Below, piece by piece: positions 19,813 through 47,037 of a stretch of DNA of 64,000 nt (position 1 is its first letter; each line of letters starts with the position of its first letter). The position numbers and the translations under genes are program-made. The notes under the pieces were generated by a model. That model saw only the letters and a program-made list of their open reading frames with translations, did no database searches and was not told the origin of the DNA. The stretch comes from Promethearchaeia archaeon (GTDB lineage Archaea; Asgardarchaeota; Lokiarchaeia; Sigyniarchaeales; SOKP01), in the NCBI GenBank assembly GCA_029856155.1, contig JAHQWL010000075.1, positions 55,561-119,560 of the forward strand. Direction: 5' to 3'.

Positions 19813-21006
19813 ATGATAGCACCATCCAATGTAAATAAATATTATGTAGGACCTAAAGCTTTATTTGACCCAGACTACATCCCCCCCCACCTATTATATA
19901 GAAAAAAAGAAGAAGATTCCCTCTTTTCTATTTTAAATGATTCAATTTCTGATGAGTTTAATCTCAACATACTCTATCAAGGAATTAATGGTATTGGAAA
20001 GAAAGTAATAGTTAATAAAGTATTAAACGATCTTTTAAACCAAAATAAAGAATTCGTTAAAATTAATAAAATTTGTGTAGATTGTAAAGAAAAGAATCCT
20101 GAAGAATTAATTTTTTTATTGTTAAGTGAAATTAACGGATTGTCAAATCTAAATTTCGATGTCCGACCACTATTAAATTCAGAAATACATCAATTATGGA
20201 ATACGTTTAAGTTCATTTGTAATAGATTTGATTCTCATTTATTTTTTATCTTTAATAACATCGAATATTTAGAACCCGAAATTTTTAATAAATTCTTACA
20301 ATTTGGCAAAGAGTCAAATATAACTCTAATATCTACTGTAAATAAAATTATACAACCTGGAACAATGGAATTATTCTCTGAATTTGATTTGAAAAAAAGA
20401 TTAAATTTTTATAATTATCAAGAGCTTTATTCTATTCTTAAACAAAGAGTATTATTAAGTTTTTCACAGGAAATAGATAGAAACCTAATTAGATACATAA
20501 CAGATTTAATCTGTGAGCAATATGTACCAGTTCCGGGTAAAGGAATTGAAATCCTTCGAGATTTATATCCATTATTAAAAAACAAAAATATTTTAGGCAA
20601 TTTTGATTTATTAGACATTTGTCAAAATAAATTTGACTCTTTTCAAATTTCTGATGAATTTAGTATGATTAACTATCTTTCTGAAGAAGATATATTGACA
20701 GTAATATTTTTAGATAATTTTTCAAATTATTTTATTAGTAAAAATAAATATTATATTTCTATAAAAGATTTACACGAATTATATGAAATTTCTTGTGAAA
20801 CTTTAGAATATGAAAAAAGTATTATTGAATTTCGTAAAATAACCGAAGAATTATTGAATATTGGAATTGTAAAACCATCAAAAAGAACATTTCATAAAAA
20901 AAGTACTCATGAAAATATTAATGGTTTAAATAATGATTCTTTCTTTATATTAATGAATCCTAAACAAATTAAGGTAATTATTGATGCAATTTTTAACCAG
21001 TGTTAA
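19813..21006 (+). CDS. divergent Orc1/Cdc6-family protein with degenerate ATPase motifs
   Basis: LFDPDYIP..L.YR N-terminus, Y...L..IL..R box, C-terminal wHTH; Walker A GINGIGKK and Walker B FNNIE are degenerate. Confidence 0.75.
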   Translation: MIAPSNVNKYYVGPKALFDPDYIPPHLLYRKKEEDSLFSILNDSISDEFNLNILYQGINGIGKKVIVNKVLNDLLNQNKEFVKINKICVDCKEKNPEELIFLLLSEINGLSNLNFDVRPLLNSEIHQLWNTFKFICNRFDSHLFFIFNNIEYLEPEIFNKFLQFGKESNITLISTVNKIIQPGTMELFSEFDLKKRLNFYNYQELYSILKQRVLLSFSQEIDRNLIRYITDLICEQYVPVPGKGIEILRDLYPLLKNKNILGNFDLLDICQNKFDSFQISDEFSMINYLSEEDILTVIFLDNFSNYFISKNKYYISIKDLHELYEISCETLEYEKSIIEFRKITEELLNIGIVKPSKRTFHKKSTHENINGLNNDSFFILMNPKQIKVIIDAIFNQC

Positions 21007-21176: not shown

Positions 21177-24100
21177 TTGACTCATATTAAAAAAATTTCT
21201 ATGAGTGGTTTCAAATCTTTTGGAGATCGAACAGTAACTATCAAGCTCTCTAGTGGATTCACATGCATCGTAGGACCAAATGGGGCGGGTAAATCTAATA
21301 TAATAGATGCTCTATGCTTCTCGTTAGGCAGATTAAGCAAAAAAACTATGAGAGCAAAAAGCTTAGAGGATCTAATCTTTGCTGGCTCACGAGGTAAAAA
21401 TCCCTCCCAGAGAGCTTCTGTTACATTATATTTTGACAATTCTGATAATGTTTTTCCAGGAGTGACTGGTGATTTTGAGATTACTCGCATTATTAAAAGG
21501 GGTGGTGGGGGAGGATATAAAATGAACGGAAAAAAAGTCACCCGTCAGCAAATACTTAACGCTTTAGCCGCGGCAAATATTGATCCTGATGGTAGTAATC
21601 AATTCGTATTACAAGGAAAGATTGTTGAATTAACACATATGAATCCTGAAGATCGCAGAAAATTTATTGAGGAATTAATAGGGCTTCAAAAATACGACGA
21701 AATGAAGGATGTTACTCTAAAGGAATTAGAAAAAGCAGAAAGAGATTTAGGACAGTTTGAAGCAATCTTCAAAGAAGTATCATCCCAACTGAAAAAAGTT
21801 GAAAAAGAAAAAAATGATGCTTTAGCTTGGAAAGAATTGGATGAGCAAATAAATTTCTTAAATTCACAGTTAATTGCCTTGAAAATTTCAAAATTAAGAG
21901 AAGAAGAAGATGAATTAGAAAAAAAAATTGACGTTTCTTCAAAAATCGTTGAAGAATTGCAAGAAAAAATAAACCGGCAAGAAGATGTATTAAAACAAGA
22001 ATCTCTTGTTATGGATAATATCCAAAAAACTATTACCGACAAAGAAAAGGAAAGAGAGCAAATAACCGAAAATATAACTCAAATAAAAACTCAAATATCT
22101 TCAAGTCAAACAACTTTAAATTTAGATATAAAATCTATTGATAAACTAACTAAAGAAATTGAATCCTTAGAAAGTCAGCAAATGAAACTTGAGGAGGGAC
22201 AGACTTTTGATTCATTAATAGAAAGTGTCTCAAATGAAATTTCAGAAAACGAAGATCATATTGAAGAAGCTAAAAAAGAAATTGAAAAAAGGCAACAAAG
22301 CCAAGCTGAACTAGACTTTAAAATAAAAAATAATGAAGATGAAAAATCCCTTTTTAAAGCAGAAATTTCTAAAATACAACAAAGTGTATCATCTAATAAC
22401 GCTCAAATTAAGGTTTTAAGAGGAAACATCAGAAAAAATGAAGAAAAGAAAGAAAAATTAGAAAACGAATTACAAAGGTTAAAAAAAGATGCTGAAAGCA
22501 TCGATGAGGCTATTGAAGTCACCAAAAAAGCAGAATCAGAAATTAGAAATAGAATAAACCAATTGAATATTAAAATTTCTAAAGAAAATCAAAATCAAAA
22601 AGATTTAGAAAATAACATTAACTCCATCCAAGCAGAAAAGAATCAGCTAAATTCTAAATTGGCAAACTTTCAAGCTACATTGTCCTCTATAAGTACAGAA
22701 ATTAAAATGAATCGTGAGAGCATACAAGAATTAAATGAAAAGAAAACTTCTATAGAGCAAAAGATTACGGATTTAAGTAAAGGTAAAGATGCTGAAAAAG
22801 CAGTAAAGGAATTACTGAGTGAAAATGATATTATTAATAAAGATTTAAGCGACTTAAAAGCAAAATTAAAACAAGAAAATTCAGTCTATAGGAAAAGTGA
22901 ACAAGATCTAGAATTATTGAAAATGAAGAAATATTCTTGTGAATCAGAAATCAGTGATAATAATGCAAAGATTGATAATATTAATACAGAACTAAAAATT
23001 CTTACAAAAGAATTAACATCCATGGATAGAGAGAAAAATAATTTAGAGTTGCAAGTAGATGCTCAAAATAACACTCTTACAGATATTACAAGTTCTACTG
23101 AAAAATTTATTATTAAAAAGGATAATGTACAAAGACGTTTAGAGGATCTTTCACAAGAAAAAGAAAATTTAACAAAAAAAATTGAGTCTTCAGAGGAAGA
23201 ATACGAGAAAAATACAAAAGATATTACAGGAATTCTCCAAATTTTAAATATGCTCACACAGAATATTAATATCTCAGTTGAATCTATTAAGGGTAATATA
23301 CAACAATCAAACGCAGAGGCAATTGAATCTTCAGCAGAAGATTTTAAAAAGTATATATTAGATATCATTGATATTATGAGAACAGTTGAGGATATTGGTG
23401 AAGACAGGGATAAATCTACTGAAATGACAGAAATGCTAGGTTCTATAATGCAAACTTTAAAAATGTTTACTGATAATGCTGATGACACAATTAGTCAATT
23501 AATCGATAAAGTAAAAGAATCAGCTGATATTGAAGTACAAAGTTCAACCTCTACATTTGATAGTTTTATTCAAGATCTAATGGAAATTCTTGAAAATGTA
23601 TATCTCTCTTTAAGAAAACTAACTATGTCTAAAAGTCAAGAACTATACAAACAATTGGAAGAAATTTCAGATACTATTAAATCGCAAACTGATGATTTTA
23701 ATAAAATTGAGAAAAAATTAACTGAAAGTAATATCCAAGAAAAACACCTATCTGAAAATCTTTCAACCTATAATAAAAGACTAAATGAAATAGATAAAAG
23801 AAATACTGAATTAACTGAAAGAATTAAAAAAGGAGAAGAAGCGATTAGTGAAAGAGAGGAAGTAATTAAGACCAGACAATCGGAAGCTAACACATTGGAT
23901 AATGATATAGAGAAATTAAAGAAATTAAAGGATACATATTGGGATAACCTTTCTACAATTCAAGATGATATTGATAAAAAACAAAAAGAATTAGAGAATC
24001 TGAGAGAAAAATTACAAGAATTGCATGGAATCCAGAATTTATTTGATAATATTACTGAAATTGATGATAACATAGAAAAATTGAATAACCTTATTGCAGA

Positions 24101-25628
24101 AAAGAAAAATTTAATAATAAACACAGAAGAAAATATTAAAAATATTCAAGAAGAACAAAACTCATATCAAAAAAAGATTGATGAACTAGTTCTAAAAAAG
24201 CAGAATTTCTGGGAAATAACAGAGAACTTGCGAAAACAAATCGATGATGAAAATAAAGTGCTTGAAGATACAATGGATCGTTTAAGAGCACTTGAAAATG
24301 TAATGAGGATTATCAACTCTATTGAAGATATTAAAAAAGAAAATAATGATGCTAAAAATAGCGTTGAAACTTGCTTAAAGGATATTGAAGGATTAAATTC
24401 TCAGGTTGAAGAGATCCAAAAAAATGTTGATCAAAAACAAGAAGTGTTAGATTCTTTAAGAAATGAAAAAACAGAAGAGTTAGAATCACAGAAAGCAGCC
24501 CAAAAGAAATTAAATAAATTGAATAAAGATTTGCAGAAATCTCAAGGGAAATTGAATGAGTTAAATAAAAATAAAGAAAGAGAACAGAAGATTATTGGGT
24601 TGCATCAAGATATAAAAGATACTGAAGAACAAATTGAATCAATAACAAAAGAATTAGGCAATTTTAAAGAGAATTTGGATAGTGAAAATGAAAAGAAAAC
24701 CGAGAAACAAAAGGAGATTGATAAATTTATACAAGAAAAAGATGAATCATGGAAAAAACAAAAACAATATCAGAAAAATATAACTGACTTAAAATCAGAT
24801 CTCTCTATGGAGAATTCTAAAATCAACAATTTTGAATCAAAAAAGATAATGTGCACTGATCAAATTGAAACTTTATTCCAGCGTTCTAAAGAATATGGGT
24901 CATTACCTCCTGTAACTGACGGACTTTCAGAAGCAGAATTACAATCAGATATTGTAGAAAAAACACAGAACAAAAAAACTCTTGAACCTGTGAATTTAAA
25001 AGCAATTGAACAATATGACACTGTAAAGGAAAGATTTGATGAGATAGATATGAGACGACAAACAATACAGAGAGAAAGGAAATCAATTCTAGATGCTATT
25101 GATAAAATTGAACTAGAAAAGACAAGAACATTCATGAAGGCTTATCACGAGATAAATAGAGAATTTAGTAGGATTTTTCAAAAGCTCAGTCCTGGTGGTT
25201 CAGCAAAAATGATTTTGGATAGACCAGATAAGCCATTTGAAGGAGGTATTAGCATAGAAGCAAGACCAAGGGGTAAAAAAATCAGCTCATTAGAAATATT
25301 AAGTGGTGGTGAAAAAACATTAGTAGCGTTATCTTTTATATTTGCTGTTCAAGAATTTTATCCCGCTCCATTTTATGTAATGGATGAGATCGATGCGGCT
25401 TTGGACGGTCCAAACGTCCACAGAGTCTCTACAGTCATAAAGGAATTTGCTTCACAAGCTCAATTCATGGTAATAAGTCATAGAGAAGAGAATATTGTAA
25501 ATGCAGATAGGATATACGGTGTATCCATGCAACAATCAGGTATTACAGACATATTTAGTGTTGATTTAGAGGAAGAGGCAAAACGTATTTTAGAACTTGA
25601 GGATATTGAGCCAACTATTACAGATTAA
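21177..25628 (+). CDS. smc: chromosome segregation ATPase SMC (atypical: 1483 aa, no recognisable hinge)
   Basis: GFKSF, Walker A GPNGAGKSN, Q-loop LQG, PVN..AIE, signature LSGGEK, Walker B/D-loop MDEIDAALD, ISH; followed by scpA and scpB. Confidence 0.93.
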   Translation: MTHIKKISMSGFKSFGDRTVTIKLSSGFTCIVGPNGAGKSNIIDALCFSLGRLSKKTMRAKSLEDLIFAGSRGKNPSQRASVTLYFDNSDNVFPGVTGDFEITRIIKRGGGGGYKMNGKKVTRQQILNALAAANIDPDGSNQFVLQGKIVELTHMNPEDRRKFIEELIGLQKYDEMKDVTLKELEKAERDLGQFEAIFKEVSSQLKKVEKEKNDALAWKELDEQINFLNSQLIALKISKLREEEDELEKKIDVSSKIVEELQEKINRQEDVLKQESLVMDNIQKTITDKEKEREQITENITQIKTQISSSQTTLNLDIKSIDKLTKEIESLESQQMKLEEGQTFDSLIESVSNEISENEDHIEEAKKEIEKRQQSQAELDFKIKNNEDEKSLFKAEISKIQQSVSSNNAQIKVLRGNIRKNEEKKEKLENELQRLKKDAESIDEAIEVTKKAESEIRNRINQLNIKISKENQNQKDLENNINSIQAEKNQLNSKLANFQATLSSISTEIKMNRESIQELNEKKTSIEQKITDLSKGKDAEKAVKELLSENDIINKDLSDLKAKLKQENSVYRKSEQDLELLKMKKYSCESEISDNNAKIDNINTELKILTKELTSMDREKNNLELQVDAQNNTLTDITSSTEKFIIKKDNVQRRLEDLSQEKENLTKKIESSEEEYEKNTKDITGILQILNMLTQNINISVESIKGNIQQSNAEAIESSAEDFKKYILDIIDIMRTVEDIGEDRDKSTEMTEMLGSIMQTLKMFTDNADDTISQLIDKVKESADIEVQSSTSTFDSFIQDLMEILENVYLSLRKLTMSKSQELYKQLEEISDTIKSQTDDFNKIEKKLTESNIQEKHLSENLSTYNKRLNEIDKRNTELTERIKKGEEAISEREEVIKTRQSEANTLDNDIEKLKKLKDTYWDNLSTIQDDIDKKQKELENLREKLQELHGIQNLFDNITEIDDNIEKLNNLIAEKKNLIINTEENIKNIQEEQNSYQKKIDELVLKKQNFWEITENLRKQIDDENKVLEDTMDRLRALENVMRIINSIEDIKKENNDAKNSVETCLKDIEGLNSQVEEIQKNVDQKQEVLDSLRNEKTEELESQKAAQKKLNKLNKDLQKSQGKLNELNKNKEREQKIIGLHQDIKDTEEQIESITKELGNFKENLDSENEKKTEKQKEIDKFIQEKDESWKKQKQYQKNITDLKSDLSMENSKINNFESKKIMCTDQIETLFQRSKEYGSLPPVTDGLSEAELQSDIVEKTQNKKTLEPVNLKAIEQYDTVKERFDEIDMRRQTIQRERKSILDAIDKIELEKTRTFMKAYHEINREFSRIFQKLSPGGSAKMILDRPDKPFEGGISIEARPRGKKISSLEILSGGEKTLVALSFIFAVQEFYPAPFYVMDEIDAALDGPNVHRVSTVIKEFASQAQFMVISHREENIVNADRIYGVSMQQSGITDIFSVDLEEEAKRILELEDIEPTITD

Positions 25629-25656
25629 TGAAAATATTTCATAGAGGTAGGTAATA

Positions 25657-26664
25657 ATTTCAAAAAATGAACAAAATTCAGTTGAAAAACATAATTTTAA
25701 TGAATGGACTATAAAAGATTTAAGGGAATTTGCATCGAAAAACAACATTAAAATTCCTTCTAAATCTAAAAAAAAGGATATTGTTGAATTACTACAAAAT
25801 ATAACATCTAATCCCGATTTCGTTGATCGATCCCTAGAAGAAGAAATGGAAGAACCTGAAATAGAATTAGTTGCTGAGTTTGATGATGATGAGGATCTTG
25901 CATTATTGAGAAAAGAGAAAGCTGAATTAAAATTTTGGCAAAAACCACCCTTTTCAAGTCTTTTAGATACAGAATTAGCAAAAGAATCCGACATTGCATT
26001 TTATGATTTATCAAAATTAGTAGATACTTTTTTTGATAATATGCTACATGAAGAATTGATTAATTATAAGATTTCTGGAATTGCGCTTAAAACGTCGGCA
26101 TCTTTACATCATTACAAAATCTCAAGTATAATAAAAGAAGAAGAACAAATTCAGAAAAGAGAAGAACTAGAAAAATTCAGACAAAGTCATTCTAGAACAA
26201 TCCCAAAAGCATTACCTCAGCCAATTTCCCCTAAAATGCAAATTGCTACCAAAGATGAACTATTTGATGCTATGCGATCAGCTATTATTGAAGTTATGCA
26301 GAATAAAGAAAAGTTAAAAAGAAGAAGAATGCGAAGAGAAGAGCTTAAAGATCAGAAGATCCAAATGAAGTCTAAAGCACAATTACCCAAAGAACTCTTA
26401 AAACATATTAGTGGAAAGGAGCAAACAGTTGAAGAATTGCATGAATCATGGTACAATCGAATAAAAGCTACCATCAATTTAAACAATAAAGAGACTAATA
26501 TTTATGATTTAATGAATATTATTAAAAATGAAGAAAAAAGTAGTATAGGGCGGAAATTTTCATTAGTACGTATGTTTTTAGCTTTAATGTTTTTATCTAC
26601 TGGAAGTAAGTTATACTTATCTCAAGAGGAAGATTTCCAAAATATTTCAGTAGATATTGGTTAA
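25657..26664 (+). CDS. scpA: kleisin ScpA with N-terminal helix-extension-helix (SAP/Rho-N-like) domain; probable ATT/ATA start
   Basis: Kleisin N-domain (DL..LV..F...SG..L..SA.L...K) and C-terminal wHTH (FLALMFL...L.QEEDF..I). The frame is open upstream of the track's ATG 25846 to a TAG at 25648-25650. Confidence 0.8.
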   Translation: MSKNEQNSVEKHNFNEWTIKDLREFASKNNIKIPSKSKKKDIVELLQNITSNPDFVDRSLEEEMEEPEIELVAEFDDDEDLALLRKEKAELKFWQKPPFSSLLDTELAKESDIAFYDLSKLVDTFFDNMLHEELINYKISGIALKTSASLHHYKISSIIKEEEQIQKREELEKFRQSHSRTIPKALPQPISPKMQIATKDELFDAMRSAIIEVMQNKEKLKRRRMRREELKDQKIQMKSKAQLPKELLKHISGKEQTVEELHESWYNRIKATINLNNKETNIYDLMNIIKNEEKSSIGRKFSLVRMFLALMFLSTGSKLYLSQEEDFQNISVDIG

Positions 26665-26704: not shown

Positions 26705-27658
26705 TTGGAAGAAGAACAGAATGGAGAACCAAATGAGGAAATAGAAAATAATCATGCTAACACTTTTGATGAAGAAAATATAGAAGAATTTGAAGAAGAA
26801 ATTACAGATTTAGAAAATGTGTCTGAAGAAGAGTCTATACAAAGAGATTCAAATGATTCAATAGAAGAAATTGGAGATAATGTCATTGAAGAACAAGAAA
26901 TAGAATCAGAAGATATTGAGAAAACAGAATTAACTGAAGAATATGATAACGAACCAGAAAATCTTCTAATAGAAGAATCTATGGATACGCAAATTGTTGA
27001 AGATGGAAAAATTATAGAAGATGATATGTCAGAAAGTACCATAGTTGATGAAAAAGCATTAGAACTTGATGAAAAAGCTCTTCGTCGAAATTTCATTGAG
27101 GCCGCTTTTTTTGCCGCTGGAGGTCCTTTAACAATAGAAGAGTTATCAAATAAATTAGAATTTTCAAAAAAGGAAGTAGAAAATTTAGTAAATGAATTAG
27201 CCTTTGATTATTTAGAGCGTACTACGTCACTAATAATAGCACAAATTGGAGATAGATATCAAATGCAAATTAGACCAGAATACACAGAAAAGGTATCCAA
27301 ATTTGCAAAAGGGGGGGCAATAGCAGAGAGGTATTTAAGAACTTTGACGATTGTTGCTCTAAAGCAACCAATCTTAAAATCAATGGTGATAAAATTAAGG
27401 GGTAGCGGAGCATATGAGCATGTGAAATACCTTTTAGACAACGACTTCATAAAAGCCGTAAAAAAAGGAAGATCTCACGAACTATCAACTACTGATAAGT
27501 ATGCTGAAATGTTCGGATTGCCAAAAGATATAAGATTGCTGAAACAAGCTATGATTACTCAATTAGGACTTGAAGAAGGAGGAAAAAGTGAGCCTTCAGG
27601 TGAAATTGAGAACGCGGATCAAGGTGAACCTTTGAGTGAAAGTGAAGAAGAAGAATAA
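26705..27658 (+). CDS. scpB: SMC-Scp complex subunit ScpB with acidic N-terminal extension
   Basis: IEAAFFA..P, LRTL..VA.KQPI, RG..AY.HV..L, TT..Y..MFGL. Confidence 0.92.
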   Translation: MEEEQNGEPNEEIENNHANTFDEENIEEFEEEITDLENVSEEESIQRDSNDSIEEIGDNVIEEQEIESEDIEKTELTEEYDNEPENLLIEESMDTQIVEDGKIIEDDMSESTIVDEKALELDEKALRRNFIEAAFFAAGGPLTIEELSNKLEFSKKEVENLVNELAFDYLERTTSLIIAQIGDRYQMQIRPEYTEKVSKFAKGGAIAERYLRTLTIVALKQPILKSMVIKLRGSGAYEHVKYLLDNDFIKAVKKGRSHELSTTDKYAEMFGLPKDIRLLKQAMITQLGLEEGGKSEPSGEIENADQGEPLSESEEEE

Positions 27659-43408: not shown

Positions 43409-43668
43409 ATTTATAGCATAGAATCTATTTTAATAACCTTCTTTGAAGAATAATCAACTTCTTTTATAAATCATAATCTAATGATAATATTTAAATATTA
43501 AATTATTTACTGTAAGAAATGAAGAAAAAATTAAAATTTAAGCAGTTAATAAATACCAAGAAATTAGTTCTAATGTTAAAGATCGTACTATTTTATTAAG
43601 TTAATTTAGTAATAAATGTATATATATTAATAATTTGTTTTAATAAAGATTGATTAAGAAATTACTTT

Positions 43669-46600
43669 TTGAGTGCGTTTAAAATTACATCGGAAGAAGA
43701 AGGAAAAATCAAACAAGGAACCATCGCAGAATATATGCGTAAGAGGACACAATTAGTTGGTTTTGAATTTGGGTACTGGAAGCATGTGCAATATTGTAGT
43801 GAGTTTCTGGACAATGCATTAGATGCCATTGAAAGTTTTCAATGGAAACAATTAAAAAAAAAAGATTCCAAAATCAAATTTTCTTTGGATCAAGAATTAT
43901 TTTTAGAGAAATTCTCCATTCTTGAGGCTGCAAAGGAAGAAAAAAGATCTCAGCACTTAGATAACGAAGCAAAACATACTTTAATGCAAGAATTCGGTAT
44001 TGAATCCACGGAATCCGATACTGCTATTGCTCAAGAACTAGAAATTAGAGAAGAAGAATCTGGAGAAATAATTGATAAAGAAGAGTTAGAAGTTGAAGAG
44101 GAGGTCAAGAGAATAATTGATGACATGCAGGAGATCATTAAGCCTGTTGAATACATCATTGATGTAGAACCTATAGTAATTCTTCGTCTCAAGGAATATG
44201 AAGCAGCTTCGTTTTTAACTTCTGAAATTAGCCAGAAAAATATCATGAGTTTCACTTTTGAAATTTTTGATAATGGCACGGGAATGTCAAAAATTGATTT
44301 AAAAAAATTTGGACGATATCTTGCCTCCTCAAAATCTATTGAATTAAAACAAACTAGAGGAAGTCAAGGATTTGGTGCACCAAGTGCTTTCAGTGATGCT
44401 CAAAACACAACTGGGAAACCAGTTATTACAGTTTCAAAATCAAGTGAACAAGTCTATGCTATGTGTTCAGAATTTTTCACTACTTCTAAAAATGAAAAAA
44501 AATATTTAATTCATCCAACTGAAATTGACAGTCCCTTTTTACATGGTACTTACATTAAATTAAATTATCTAAATGTAAGATATGTTAGGGGATATGTTGA
44601 AAAATACATTGAAGAAACAGCATTTATGAATCCTCATGTTACGCTTATTTATATTGATCCTTTTGGAAAGGAAAAAATTTATCGAAGATTAGCTACTTCT
44701 TTCCCACCTGAACCTAAATATGCCAAACCTCATCCTTCGTCTACTAATATAGGAGATCTACAAGATCTGATTACAAAATCCGAAAATAAATCCATGTCGG
44801 CGTTCTTACAAGATAATTTCGTTAGAATGAGTTCAAAAATAGCTAAAGTAATTGTAGATATTGCCGAAAGAGATTTACAAGATAAGTTAAATTTACTAAT
44901 ATTGAAAGATGGTTTTGTCAATTTAGTTAAGAAAAAGACAGATCCAATTTATTTAATGCGAGATGAAAAAAGGATATACGGGCGTTCTACTAAACCACGA
45001 GACAAATTAATAATTTATCAAGTTGAATCAGAAGAACTTAAAGGAAAATATTGGGATTTTATATCAAATTATAATAAATATATTAGAGATTATGAAAAAA
45101 TTAATAAAGAGATAAAGAAACTAAATAACCAAATTGAAAAAACTGGAACTAAAAAAGAAATTACTGCTATCGAGAAAGAAATTAAAAAGTTTTTAAAAAA
45201 AATTGAGGACAACAGAAAAGAAAAAGATATAATTAAGGGAAATTTAAATAATCTATTTAAAGATGTTAATGATGGATTGATTGAGCAAAAAAAAGTTAGG
45301 AATAGAACAGATTTTGAAGTTTTAGTTAATGAAGTCCAAATATCTAAAGTAAAACCTGTTGATTCAACAAAAGAGCAATTTAATTCTCTATTCCTTGCTT
45401 TCAAATCAATGAAGTATATGGCTCCTCCAACAGACACAGCAATTCCCGTAGGAGAATCTATATTAGAGAATACACTAATTAAAGAAATTGGGTTACGAAT
45501 TTCAGATAATATCGATGATTTTGATATACCTATCGACACAATTAGGCAAACAACTGAATTATTACATGAAGAAAAAAAGAGGATATTATTAAAAGAAGAA
45601 AAAAAGATTCATGACGATGAAATTACTAATATTAAAATAGATTCAGAAGAGCTTATCAACTTAAATTCTGAAATATTGGGGACTATTGATATTCTCGATG
45701 ATACTTTTGATTATCAACAAGTAAAACCAACAATTGAAGATATTCTTAGCTTTTCTGATATTACCTCTGTAGAAAGCTATGGCGATTTATTTGACTATTT
45801 CCTTGAAACCTTTACAAAAGATGACGATTTTGTTGCAGCAGAAACAAGACCACCTACAAGCGGAAAAGGCTTAGCATATGTAGTTGAAGCGGTAATGGCC
45901 TATTCTAGAAGTATTGAAGTTCCTAAACGCTCAAGAGACGTTTTATCGAGGTTTGTGAATAGAACACCGAAATTAAGAGATAGTGCTGATTGTGCTATAA
46001 CAAAAGCAGTTCAATCAGTAAATTGGAAGAATTATAATCTTGAAACATATGATAATGGCTTGCCAAGAGGGCCAATAAAACTATTAGTTAATGTTTCTGG
46101 ACCATTTGTGCATTTAATGTTTAAATCACAATCAAAAAATGCCCTAGCTGATGATGAAGATTTAATTAAAGAAATGAAATATTGTCTTGAAGCAATAGGA
46201 AGAAGATTACGAGTATATATCAATAGAAGAGCTAGTATACATAAAAGTGAAAAAAGAGCTAGTTTAATAGAGAAGTATATCCCAACATTCGTTAAAAGTG
46301 TATATAATATCGCATCTCGGGGGGAGAGTAAATATAAAGCAAAATTGGATATTAAAGAAATTGAAGATTTAATGAAGGGAGCAATAGGCAAAAAAAAAGC
46401 TCCAGTCATTGTTAAAGATTTAAAATCCGAAAAACCTGAAATTAAAGAAGGAGAAATTAAAAAAGAAGAACCAAAGGAAGTTGAGACCCTTAAAGAAGAG
46501 ATTGATATTAAAAAAGAAATTTCTATCGAAAAACCGAAACCAAAAAAAGAATTAATTTCTAAAAAAACCCTACTTAATTGGACTATTAAAGAACTCAAAG

Positions 46601-47037
46601 ATTATTGTAAAGAACATGATATAATAATACAATCAAAAGAAAGAAAAAATGACATTATTGATAAGATTTTAGATTCATTTACTGCTGAGAAAGTTTCAGA
46701 GAAACCAGAAAAAATTGAACCTTTAGTTCCAGAAATCATCACAGAAAAACCAATACCTTTAATAGTATCTCCTATGAAAAAACCTATACCAACTACCACT
46801 CAAAAAGCACCTTCAAAACCAAAATCAACTCAAACAACACTTCCCATTATTACTACTGATAGAATTTTTTCTGTATTGTCAAAGGAGTGGCAAACTATAA
46901 AACATCTTATCTTTAAATTAAAAATTAAAGACATGATGGATGCTCGTTACCTTCAATTGAAGTTAAAAGAATTAGAACGTAAAGGGCAAGTATTGGTTGA
47001 GGTTAAAATGGGTAGAAAACATTGGAAATTGAAATGA
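43669..47037 (+). CDS. top6B: DNA topoisomerase VI subunit B, greatly expanded (1122 aa)
   Basis: GHKL motifs EFLDNALDA, DNGTGM, QTRGSQGFG; KPHP; transducer RFVNR.P and NWKNY; adjacent to top6A. Confidence 0.92.
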   Translation: MSAFKITSEEEGKIKQGTIAEYMRKRTQLVGFEFGYWKHVQYCSEFLDNALDAIESFQWKQLKKKDSKIKFSLDQELFLEKFSILEAAKEEKRSQHLDNEAKHTLMQEFGIESTESDTAIAQELEIREEESGEIIDKEELEVEEEVKRIIDDMQEIIKPVEYIIDVEPIVILRLKEYEAASFLTSEISQKNIMSFTFEIFDNGTGMSKIDLKKFGRYLASSKSIELKQTRGSQGFGAPSAFSDAQNTTGKPVITVSKSSEQVYAMCSEFFTTSKNEKKYLIHPTEIDSPFLHGTYIKLNYLNVRYVRGYVEKYIEETAFMNPHVTLIYIDPFGKEKIYRRLATSFPPEPKYAKPHPSSTNIGDLQDLITKSENKSMSAFLQDNFVRMSSKIAKVIVDIAERDLQDKLNLLILKDGFVNLVKKKTDPIYLMRDEKRIYGRSTKPRDKLIIYQVESEELKGKYWDFISNYNKYIRDYEKINKEIKKLNNQIEKTGTKKEITAIEKEIKKFLKKIEDNRKEKDIIKGNLNNLFKDVNDGLIEQKKVRNRTDFEVLVNEVQISKVKPVDSTKEQFNSLFLAFKSMKYMAPPTDTAIPVGESILENTLIKEIGLRISDNIDDFDIPIDTIRQTTELLHEEKKRILLKEEKKIHDDEITNIKIDSEELINLNSEILGTIDILDDTFDYQQVKPTIEDILSFSDITSVESYGDLFDYFLETFTKDDDFVAAETRPPTSGKGLAYVVEAVMAYSRSIEVPKRSRDVLSRFVNRTPKLRDSADCAITKAVQSVNWKNYNLETYDNGLPRGPIKLLVNVSGPFVHLMFKSQSKNALADDEDLIKEMKYCLEAIGRRLRVYINRRASIHKSEKRASLIEKYIPTFVKSVYNIASRGESKYKAKLDIKEIEDLMKGAIGKKKAPVIVKDLKSEKPEIKEGEIKKEEPKEVETLKEEIDIKKEISIEKPKPKKELISKKTLLNWTIKELKDYCKEHDIIIQSKERKNDIIDKILDSFTAEKVSEKPEKIEPLVPEIITEKPIPLIVSPMKKPIPTTTQKAPSKPKSTQTTLPIITTDRIFSVLSKEWQTIKHLIFKLKIKDMMDARYLQLKLKELERKGQVLVEVKMGRKHWKLK

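Follow-up and report, generated by a model that had tools for sequence, protein, structure and literature searches.

The smc-scpA-scpB locus and the start of scpA

Within the window, the whole 64,000-nucleotide stretch of Promethearchaeia archaeon DNA that was analyzed, a degenerate cdc6-like gene is followed by smc (21177-25628), scpA and scpB (26705-27658), all on the forward strand. The Cdc6/Orc1-like gene (19813-21006) scored far under the family cut-offs and was found directly 5' of smc in relatives too. Gene callers begin scpA at the ATG at 25846, 217 nt from the smc stop codon, giving a product of 272 aa. The first-pass annotation had described this gap as open in the scpA frame, with a GAGGT motif followed by ATA and ATT and with no ATG, GTG or TTG. 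All of these elements were located as claimed, and positions 25651 to 25845 were stop-free and in continuous frame with scpA. The probability of an open frame arising here by chance was ~0.0014 at the local composition; with thousands of gaps to choose from, the open frame taken alone was weak evidence of coding.

Conservation of the gap was examined in orthologues. Among 21 same-genus orthologues, dN/dS was 0.095 at residues 16 to 50 of the frame read from 25651, compared to 0.045 to 0.105 in the kleisin body, while the first 12 residues had a value of 0.59. The encoded helix-extension-helix (HeH) module and the kleisin core shared one stop-free frame in 80/80 fetched orthologous loci, which were the 80 closest and hence mostly from one family. 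The extension was thus kept by orthologues, and some (5/75) carried an ATG at the upstream site. Many ScpA relatives are annotated at 330 to 335 aa, wherever an ATG, GTG or TTG lies close by; others, such as P0024, are shortened calls cut at varied points. Since Pfam cut-offs were passed (see below), dN/dS was low and the frame was kept in every locus, the upstream stretch was not due to chance. These results indicated that scpA starts ~63 codons before the called ATG, that its product bears a conserved HeH at the N terminus, attached by an acidic linker, and that the full gene (25657-26664, forward strand) encodes 335 aa. It is scarcely credible that the stretch upstream of 25846 is untranslated and that ScpA begins at that ATG: the lack of a standard start codon further upstream in this genome would fit such a reading, but Met was present at 25846 in only 2/21 same-genus orthologues, several orthologues had an upstream ATG and the HeH was under purifying selection. 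Assembled contigs of one RNA run with a small share left 25651-25845 uncovered, which is uninformative.

A Shine-Dalgarno (SD)-like site is present at 25644-25650 (forward strand; GAGGT core at 25644-25648), where orthologues mostly have GGTGA, and the most likely start codon is the ATT at 25657-25659, 6 nt after the core. Start codons were tallied in 75 orthologues by taking the in-frame codon ~6 nt behind the SD core, whatever its identity. This codon was ATT in 38, ATA in 18, ATC in 5, ATG in 5, GTT in 5 and another codon in 4, so that ATT, ATA and ATC together accounted for 61/75. The following codon was almost always Ser or Pro, while the preceding codon varied freely and was a TAA stop in 4 orthologues. 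Thus, an initiator-type codon holds its spacing from the SD and interchanges with ATG. The proposal of a non-canonical start behind an SD-like motif was borne out in favor of ATT 25657, whereas the other candidate, ATA 25654, was rejected as its position is free among orthologues and at times a stop. The pattern strongly suggests that ribosomes start scpA at ATT 25657, as they would for several per cent of the genes of this lineage.

The potential for similar starts elsewhere was examined in long open reading frames whose first standard start codon lies at least 25 codons in. An SD with ATT, ATA or ATC (rarely CTG) near the 5' end was detected in 33/118 of these frames, compared to 134/2475 (5.4%) in gene interiors, which served as the control; a plain count of codons following SD motifs had too much noise to show how common such starts are. 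As judged from the genome sequences, ATT, ATA and ATC starts are a lineage-wide and genome-wide habit and are ordinary for this lineage. A special regulatory role for the odd start of scpA was unsupported in view of these frequencies. As the habit is genome-wide and the codons interchange, the scpA start need not be regulatory; it explains how the domain escaped notice, and is shared by other genes. Apparent ATT, ATA or ATC starts behind an SD were seen in dozens of genes, among them an actin-like gene on contig C26 and ketopantoate-reductase-like, ThiF-like and gamma-carbonic-anhydrase-like genes (named by sequence appearance). Initiation at AUU occurs in Escherichia coli infC and pcnB, and ATT, ATC and ATA are initiators in NCBI table 11. 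Like these two genes, scpA would initiate at an Ile codon behind an SD; it differs in that ATT, ATA, ATC and ATG are swapped among orthologues and the habit extends over the genome. One consequence is that gene callers trim the HeH off ScpA and domain surveys of Asgard proteomes miss it.

Domain structure of ScpA and exchange of its N-terminal module

The HeH module (25696-25800, forward strand) corresponds to residues 16 to 50 of the frame read from 25651. AlphaFold2 predicted helices at residues 21 to 30 and 41 to 52, in the same numbering, around an extended loop (~35 residues; pLDDT ~84). Residues 16 to 52 exceeded the Pfam cut-offs for Rho_N (25.1 to 26.3 bits versus 24.9) and Ish1 (26.9 to 28.3 bits versus 26.6), while HeH (21.7 versus 28.9) and SAP (13.3 versus 23.9) remained under threshold. 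The HeH/LEM family matched all 22 aligned copies of the module, each under its cut-off. Positions K38 and K41 were invariant and position 40 was always K or R, but the net charge of the module on this ScpA was only +3 and the best 35-residue window of one orthologue had a net charge of -1. A PDB sequence search with the HeH profile yielded no significant match (the Tho1 SAP domain was found at E 0.3), structure searches with the ScpA model were filled by matches to the winged helix, and an Atlas search with the HeH gave only leads below 0.9, with Rho_N/SAP clusters at 0.77. Overall, by profile and predicted fold, residues 16 to 50 are an HeH-type domain of the Rho-N/Ish1/SAP clan. The first-pass annotation was therefore correct in placing such a domain on ScpA, where ordinary ScpA has none; of the families it had named for a profile search, Rho_N was matched above its cut-off and SAP and HeH were not. 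The module shares with HeH, LEM, SAP, Rho-N and Ish1 domains two predicted helices with an extended loop, a T-V-x-x-L start and a conserved Lys before helix 2, but no one subfamily could be assigned because the SAP and HeH/LEM models were under cut-off.

An acidic, low-confidence linker (25801-25929, forward strand; pLDDT <50 at residues 66 to 83) joins the HeH to the kleisin core. The N-terminal helical domain of the core (25930-26190, forward strand) was conserved and predicted to be helical at residues 94 to 180, a putative binder of the Smc neck, and similarity to all other Asgard ScpA proteins begins here. Structure alignments to condensin and cohesin kleisins were long, starting from residue 92 to 97, but of high rmsd. 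The C-terminal winged helix (26425-26661, forward strand) was detected by VIA-align and Foldseek, and its top match was the ScpA cWHD 4i99_C (VIA-align Z 11.5; rmsd 1.8 Å over 70 residues), followed by Scc1. The AlphaFold2 model combined the HeH helices, a disordered acidic linker, a helical kleisin core and the winged helix. Pfam SMC_ScpA was the best kleisin-family match at 15.9 bits (21.8 in a genome search; cut-off, 24.6), and the gene is encoded together with smc and scpB. The kite protein encoded by scpB (26705-27658) has an acidic N-terminal tail of ~125 residues, which could interact with or shield basic kleisin tails.

The N-terminal slot of ScpA was then compared between lineages. 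In the sister family f2, the tails were rich in Lys, Ser and Thr, with a 35-residue net charge of up to +20. Genus g13 and one f2 genome had a CPxCG...HxC zinc finger in the slot, and two genomes of genus g22 had a helix-hairpin-helix (HhH; HHH_5 at 50 to 52 bits versus a cut-off of 27). Some ScpA proteins with ATG starts carried two HeH copies (P0105, P0106 and P0110), and a few tails within the hingeless-SMC clade described below were short or of mixed charge (L217 and L218). In g13 and g22 the HeH was exchanged for another module, not simply lost. ScpA proteins clustered with hinge-bearing Smc in other orders started ~20 residues before the kleisin core; frames from hinge-bearing orders or other Asgard classes were 225 to 297 aa, without such a tail, and similarity to those of the other classes was confined to the kleisin core onwards. 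These comparisons, which rest on sequence matches, indicate that four module types occupy the same slot: HeH, HhH, zinc finger and Lys-rich tail.

The HeH profile was detected in 37/41 genomes of the host family, in 0/4 g13 genomes and, weakly, in 2/19 genomes of other families. Three clear copies were present in the genome under study. Besides that on ScpA, one lies near the C terminus of topoisomerase VI subunit B (Top6B; HeH at 46543-46683, forward strand) and one on a gelsolin-like protein. The Top6B gene (43654-47037) is unusually long (~1120 aa), with large insertions, and the gelsolin-like protein with a C-terminal HeH is encoded elsewhere in the genome (L032, 1444-2580, reverse strand; G000:C71). 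At about the HeH site, f2 Top6B orthologues had a Lys-rich tract, and g13 and f2 gelsolin-like orthologues had Lys/Thr-rich repeats where the HeH sits. Genus g22 retained the HeH on Top6B and the gelsolin-like protein though its ScpA has an HhH, so the ScpA slot had changed on its own. Several f1 genomes had extra gelsolin-like paralogues with one or two HeH copies, and relatives added an IFT52/GIFT-domain protein, a probable membrane protein and others as hosts. Copies numbered one to five per genome and fell on a small recurring set of hosts, and a wide search with the profile yielded 890 matching sequence clusters, in which the hosts were unrelated and tandem copies were frequent. The zinc finger of the ScpA slot also occurred on aIF2-gamma. 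By their sequence distribution, both HeH and zinc finger are promiscuous modules in this lineage. The g13 aIF2-gamma proteins (L223 and L224) had an N-terminal CPxCG zinc finger and a Lys-rich extension, with no ATG at the front, and small Lys-rich proteins with the same finger were also observed (L225 and L226).

The SMC partner and its apex

The smc gene (21177-25628, forward strand) encodes a protein of 1483 aa with intact ATPase heads, which passed the TIGR02168 cut-off. The claim that this SMC lacks a canonical hinge was confirmed. The hinge model PF06470 gave no match in this protein but matched 10 controls and the paralogues, the Gly-rich motif GX6GX3GG was not found in it, and the apex was predicted to be wholly helical. 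Residues 501 to 1033 were predicted as unbroken helix apart from a single turn around residue 745 (nucleotides 23400-23417). In 15 hingeless SMCs, the 400 residues at the center contained no CxxC of the Rad50 zinc-hook type. Fold searches with the apex retrieved generic long helical hairpins (chemoreceptors, PrgA and SMC arms) and were uninformative, an Atlas search gave only leads below 0.9, and complex prediction with two apex copies gave a score of 0.02, from which no verdict could be drawn. The helical apex is arguably more surprising than the HeH.

The hingeless form of ~1480 aa was present in three families of the host order and was conserved across that order. It was not found in seven genomes of other orders, whose best matches were Smc proteins of ~1190 aa; hinge motifs were present in the three of these proteins that were examined. 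In a quick tree without genus g22, which did not resolve the sister hinge-bearing paralogue, the hingeless SMCs formed one clade (SH-aLRT, 92), with genus g13 sister to the rest of the host family. As the hingeless SMC is order-wide and the HeH occurs in no more than most of a single family, the HeH is younger than the loss of the hinge.

Other SMC systems were observed in these genomes. A second system in the host genome comprises an SMC5/6-like protein of 1161 aa, in which the hinge is weak (L168, 4758-9433, reverse strand; G000:C26), followed by genes for 217-aa and 172-aa proteins resembling its kleisin and kite. A hinge-bearing Smc paralogue was kept in some genera (L152-L156, L160, L161, L163-L165 and L169), mostly beside an scpB and with no ScpA detected within 13 kb. 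This paralogue was not found in the host genus, and one genome that has it carries a second, unlinked ScpA-like gene (L173). In another order, a 1262-aa SMC-like protein (L162, 4230-8015) had a Gly-poor middle with a CxxC, a possible hook-type apex on SMC-type heads.

Potential function of the kleisin tail

HeH, HhH, zinc finger and Lys-rich tail all belong to classes with established nucleic-acid binding. The replacement of the HeH by unrelated modules of this type at one slot provides independent support for a DNA anchor, and with four module types alternating in a protein that is itself under purifying selection, a tethered DNA grip is the most economical role for all of them. We consider it fairly probable that the HeH acts as a kleisin-borne, sequence-nonspecific DNA tether. 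The flexibly attached module would bind DNA irrespective of sequence and give the Smc-ScpA-ScpB ring an extra grip beside the Smc neck, which could serve loading or keep hold of one segment of DNA as loops are extruded. The slot may have arisen as a long, mostly basic tail in the order whose SMC lost its hinge and may later have been filled by an HeH in most of the host family, an HhH in one genus and a zinc finger in another. The neck is where the N-terminal domain of the kleisin attaches to Smc (Jeon et al. 2020; PMC7055376). The conserved basic residues at positions 38, 40 and 41 and the lack of such a tail on ScpA clustered with hinge-bearing Smc also favor a tether. Ku offers a precedent for a Lys-rich tail and a SAP domain as alternatives: the Lys-rich tail of a bacterial Ku confers DNA binding on GFP and was put forward as equivalent to the SAP domain of Ku70 (McGovern et al. 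2016; PMC4889933). Several findings count against a DNA tether, namely, the modest charge of the HeH, its presence on gelsolin-like, GIFT-domain and probable membrane proteins with no evident DNA role, the zinc finger on aIF2-gamma and the few short or mixed-charge tails in the hingeless clade.

The modest charge of the HeH would also fit a LEM-like docking tag for a chromatin or scaffold protein, by which ScpA, Top6B, the gelsolin-like protein and others would be co-located. Such a tag could explain the recurrence of the module on the same few hosts, its placement at sites occupied by Lys-rich tracts in relatives, for each of the three main hosts, and the below-cut-off HeH/LEM matches of all 22 copies. 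However, four unrelated folds, all able to bind nucleic acid, are unlikely to share one protein partner, and the HhH on g22 ScpA alone weakened the idea that the three hosts swap tags together; we regard a docking tag as unlikely. Binding to RNA or polyanions in general, as for the Rho N-terminal domain, with the module serving as a localization or solubility tag, appears less likely again. Rho_N was one of the two families matched above cut-off and aIF2-gamma carries the zinc-finger/Lys-rich alternative, but the host here is a kleisin in an smc-scpA-scpB operon, topoisomerase VI is another frequent host and the HhH is a DNA-binding type of domain. A translated but dispensable passenger from a mobile domain family, as the 890 clusters on unrelated hosts and the exchangeable slot might suggest, is improbable given a dN/dS equal to that of the kleisin body, retention of the HeH in all 80 close orthologues, its duplication in some proteins and its replacement rather than loss.

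The first-pass annotation had further suggested that the tether might compensate for the missing hinge. This was not upheld for the HeH itself, which is restricted to most of one family while the hingeless SMC is order-wide and which also sits on Top6B, gelsolin-like and GIFT-domain proteins. It is the long basic tail in general that tracks the hingeless SMC, and as this association amounts to a single evolutionary event, it cannot show compensation. That the ScpA tail compensates for the hinge, the two changes sharing a node in the sequence comparisons, is a tentative suggestion. We would be equally cautious in proposing that one Lokiarchaeia order has a remodelled Smc-ScpAB in which the hinge has become a helical hairpin and an obligatory, interchangeable N-terminal grip on the kleisin makes up for the DNA contact that was lost. 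If true, this complex would be a natural experiment on the DNA contacts that loop extrusion needs, in the lineage closest to eukaryotes, the Asgard archaea. There is continuing debate over the way in which an SMC ring keeps hold of one stretch of DNA as it reels in a second, and we know of no dedicated anchor for Smc-ScpAB. The four-module slot and the hingeless SMC provide a ready deletion and swap series for the roles of anchor and hinge.

Comparisons were made with known systems. The complex resembles prokaryotic Smc-ScpA-ScpB of Bacillus subtilis and Pyrococcus/Thermococcus (Jeon et al. 2020; PMC7055376) in gene order, ATPase heads, a kleisin with a predicted N-terminal helical domain and a C-terminal winged helix, and a ScpB kite. 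It differs in having an HeH and linker ahead of the helical domain, an SMC that is ~290 aa longer and whose apex is predicted to be helical throughout where the others have the alpha/beta hinge, and a long acidic tail on ScpB. With Ku (PMC4889933) it shares a ring-shaped DNA machine bearing a flexible terminal appendage, which takes the form of a SAP-like fold or of a low-complexity basic tail; the appendage of Ku is C-terminal and belongs to another machine, whereas here it is N-terminal on the kleisin and four module types alternate. Kleisins elsewhere also add domains or DNA contacts beyond ring closure. Examples are the N-terminal winged helix of MukF/MksF/JetA, which in MukF dimerizes the kleisin, and the Brn1-Ycg1 safety belt of condensin, which needs a HEAT subunit. 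These folds are unrelated to the HeH, and neither a kleisin dimerization domain nor a HEAT subunit was seen here.

Literature searches, which covered few subscription papers, found no Lokiarchaeia ScpA or hinge variant, no kleisin with a SAP domain or other HeH-type fusion and no alternative starts in Lokiarchaeia. Main-text passages of van Hooff et al. (10.1101/2024.01.07.573240), Yoshinaga and Inagaki (PMC8665677) and Jeon et al. (PMC7055376) made no mention of an HeH-kleisin or a hingeless SMC. The complex of the host is a new variant of Smc-ScpAB, of which no description was found in the literature searched. New in this analysis are the exchange among four modules, the relative dating that puts hinge loss before the HeH, and the placement of the start at ATT 25657. 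A contig labelled Nanopelagicaceae bacterium (L113) was also observed to carry this Lokiarchaeia operon, at 69% identity, and its label is probably a binning or labelling error.
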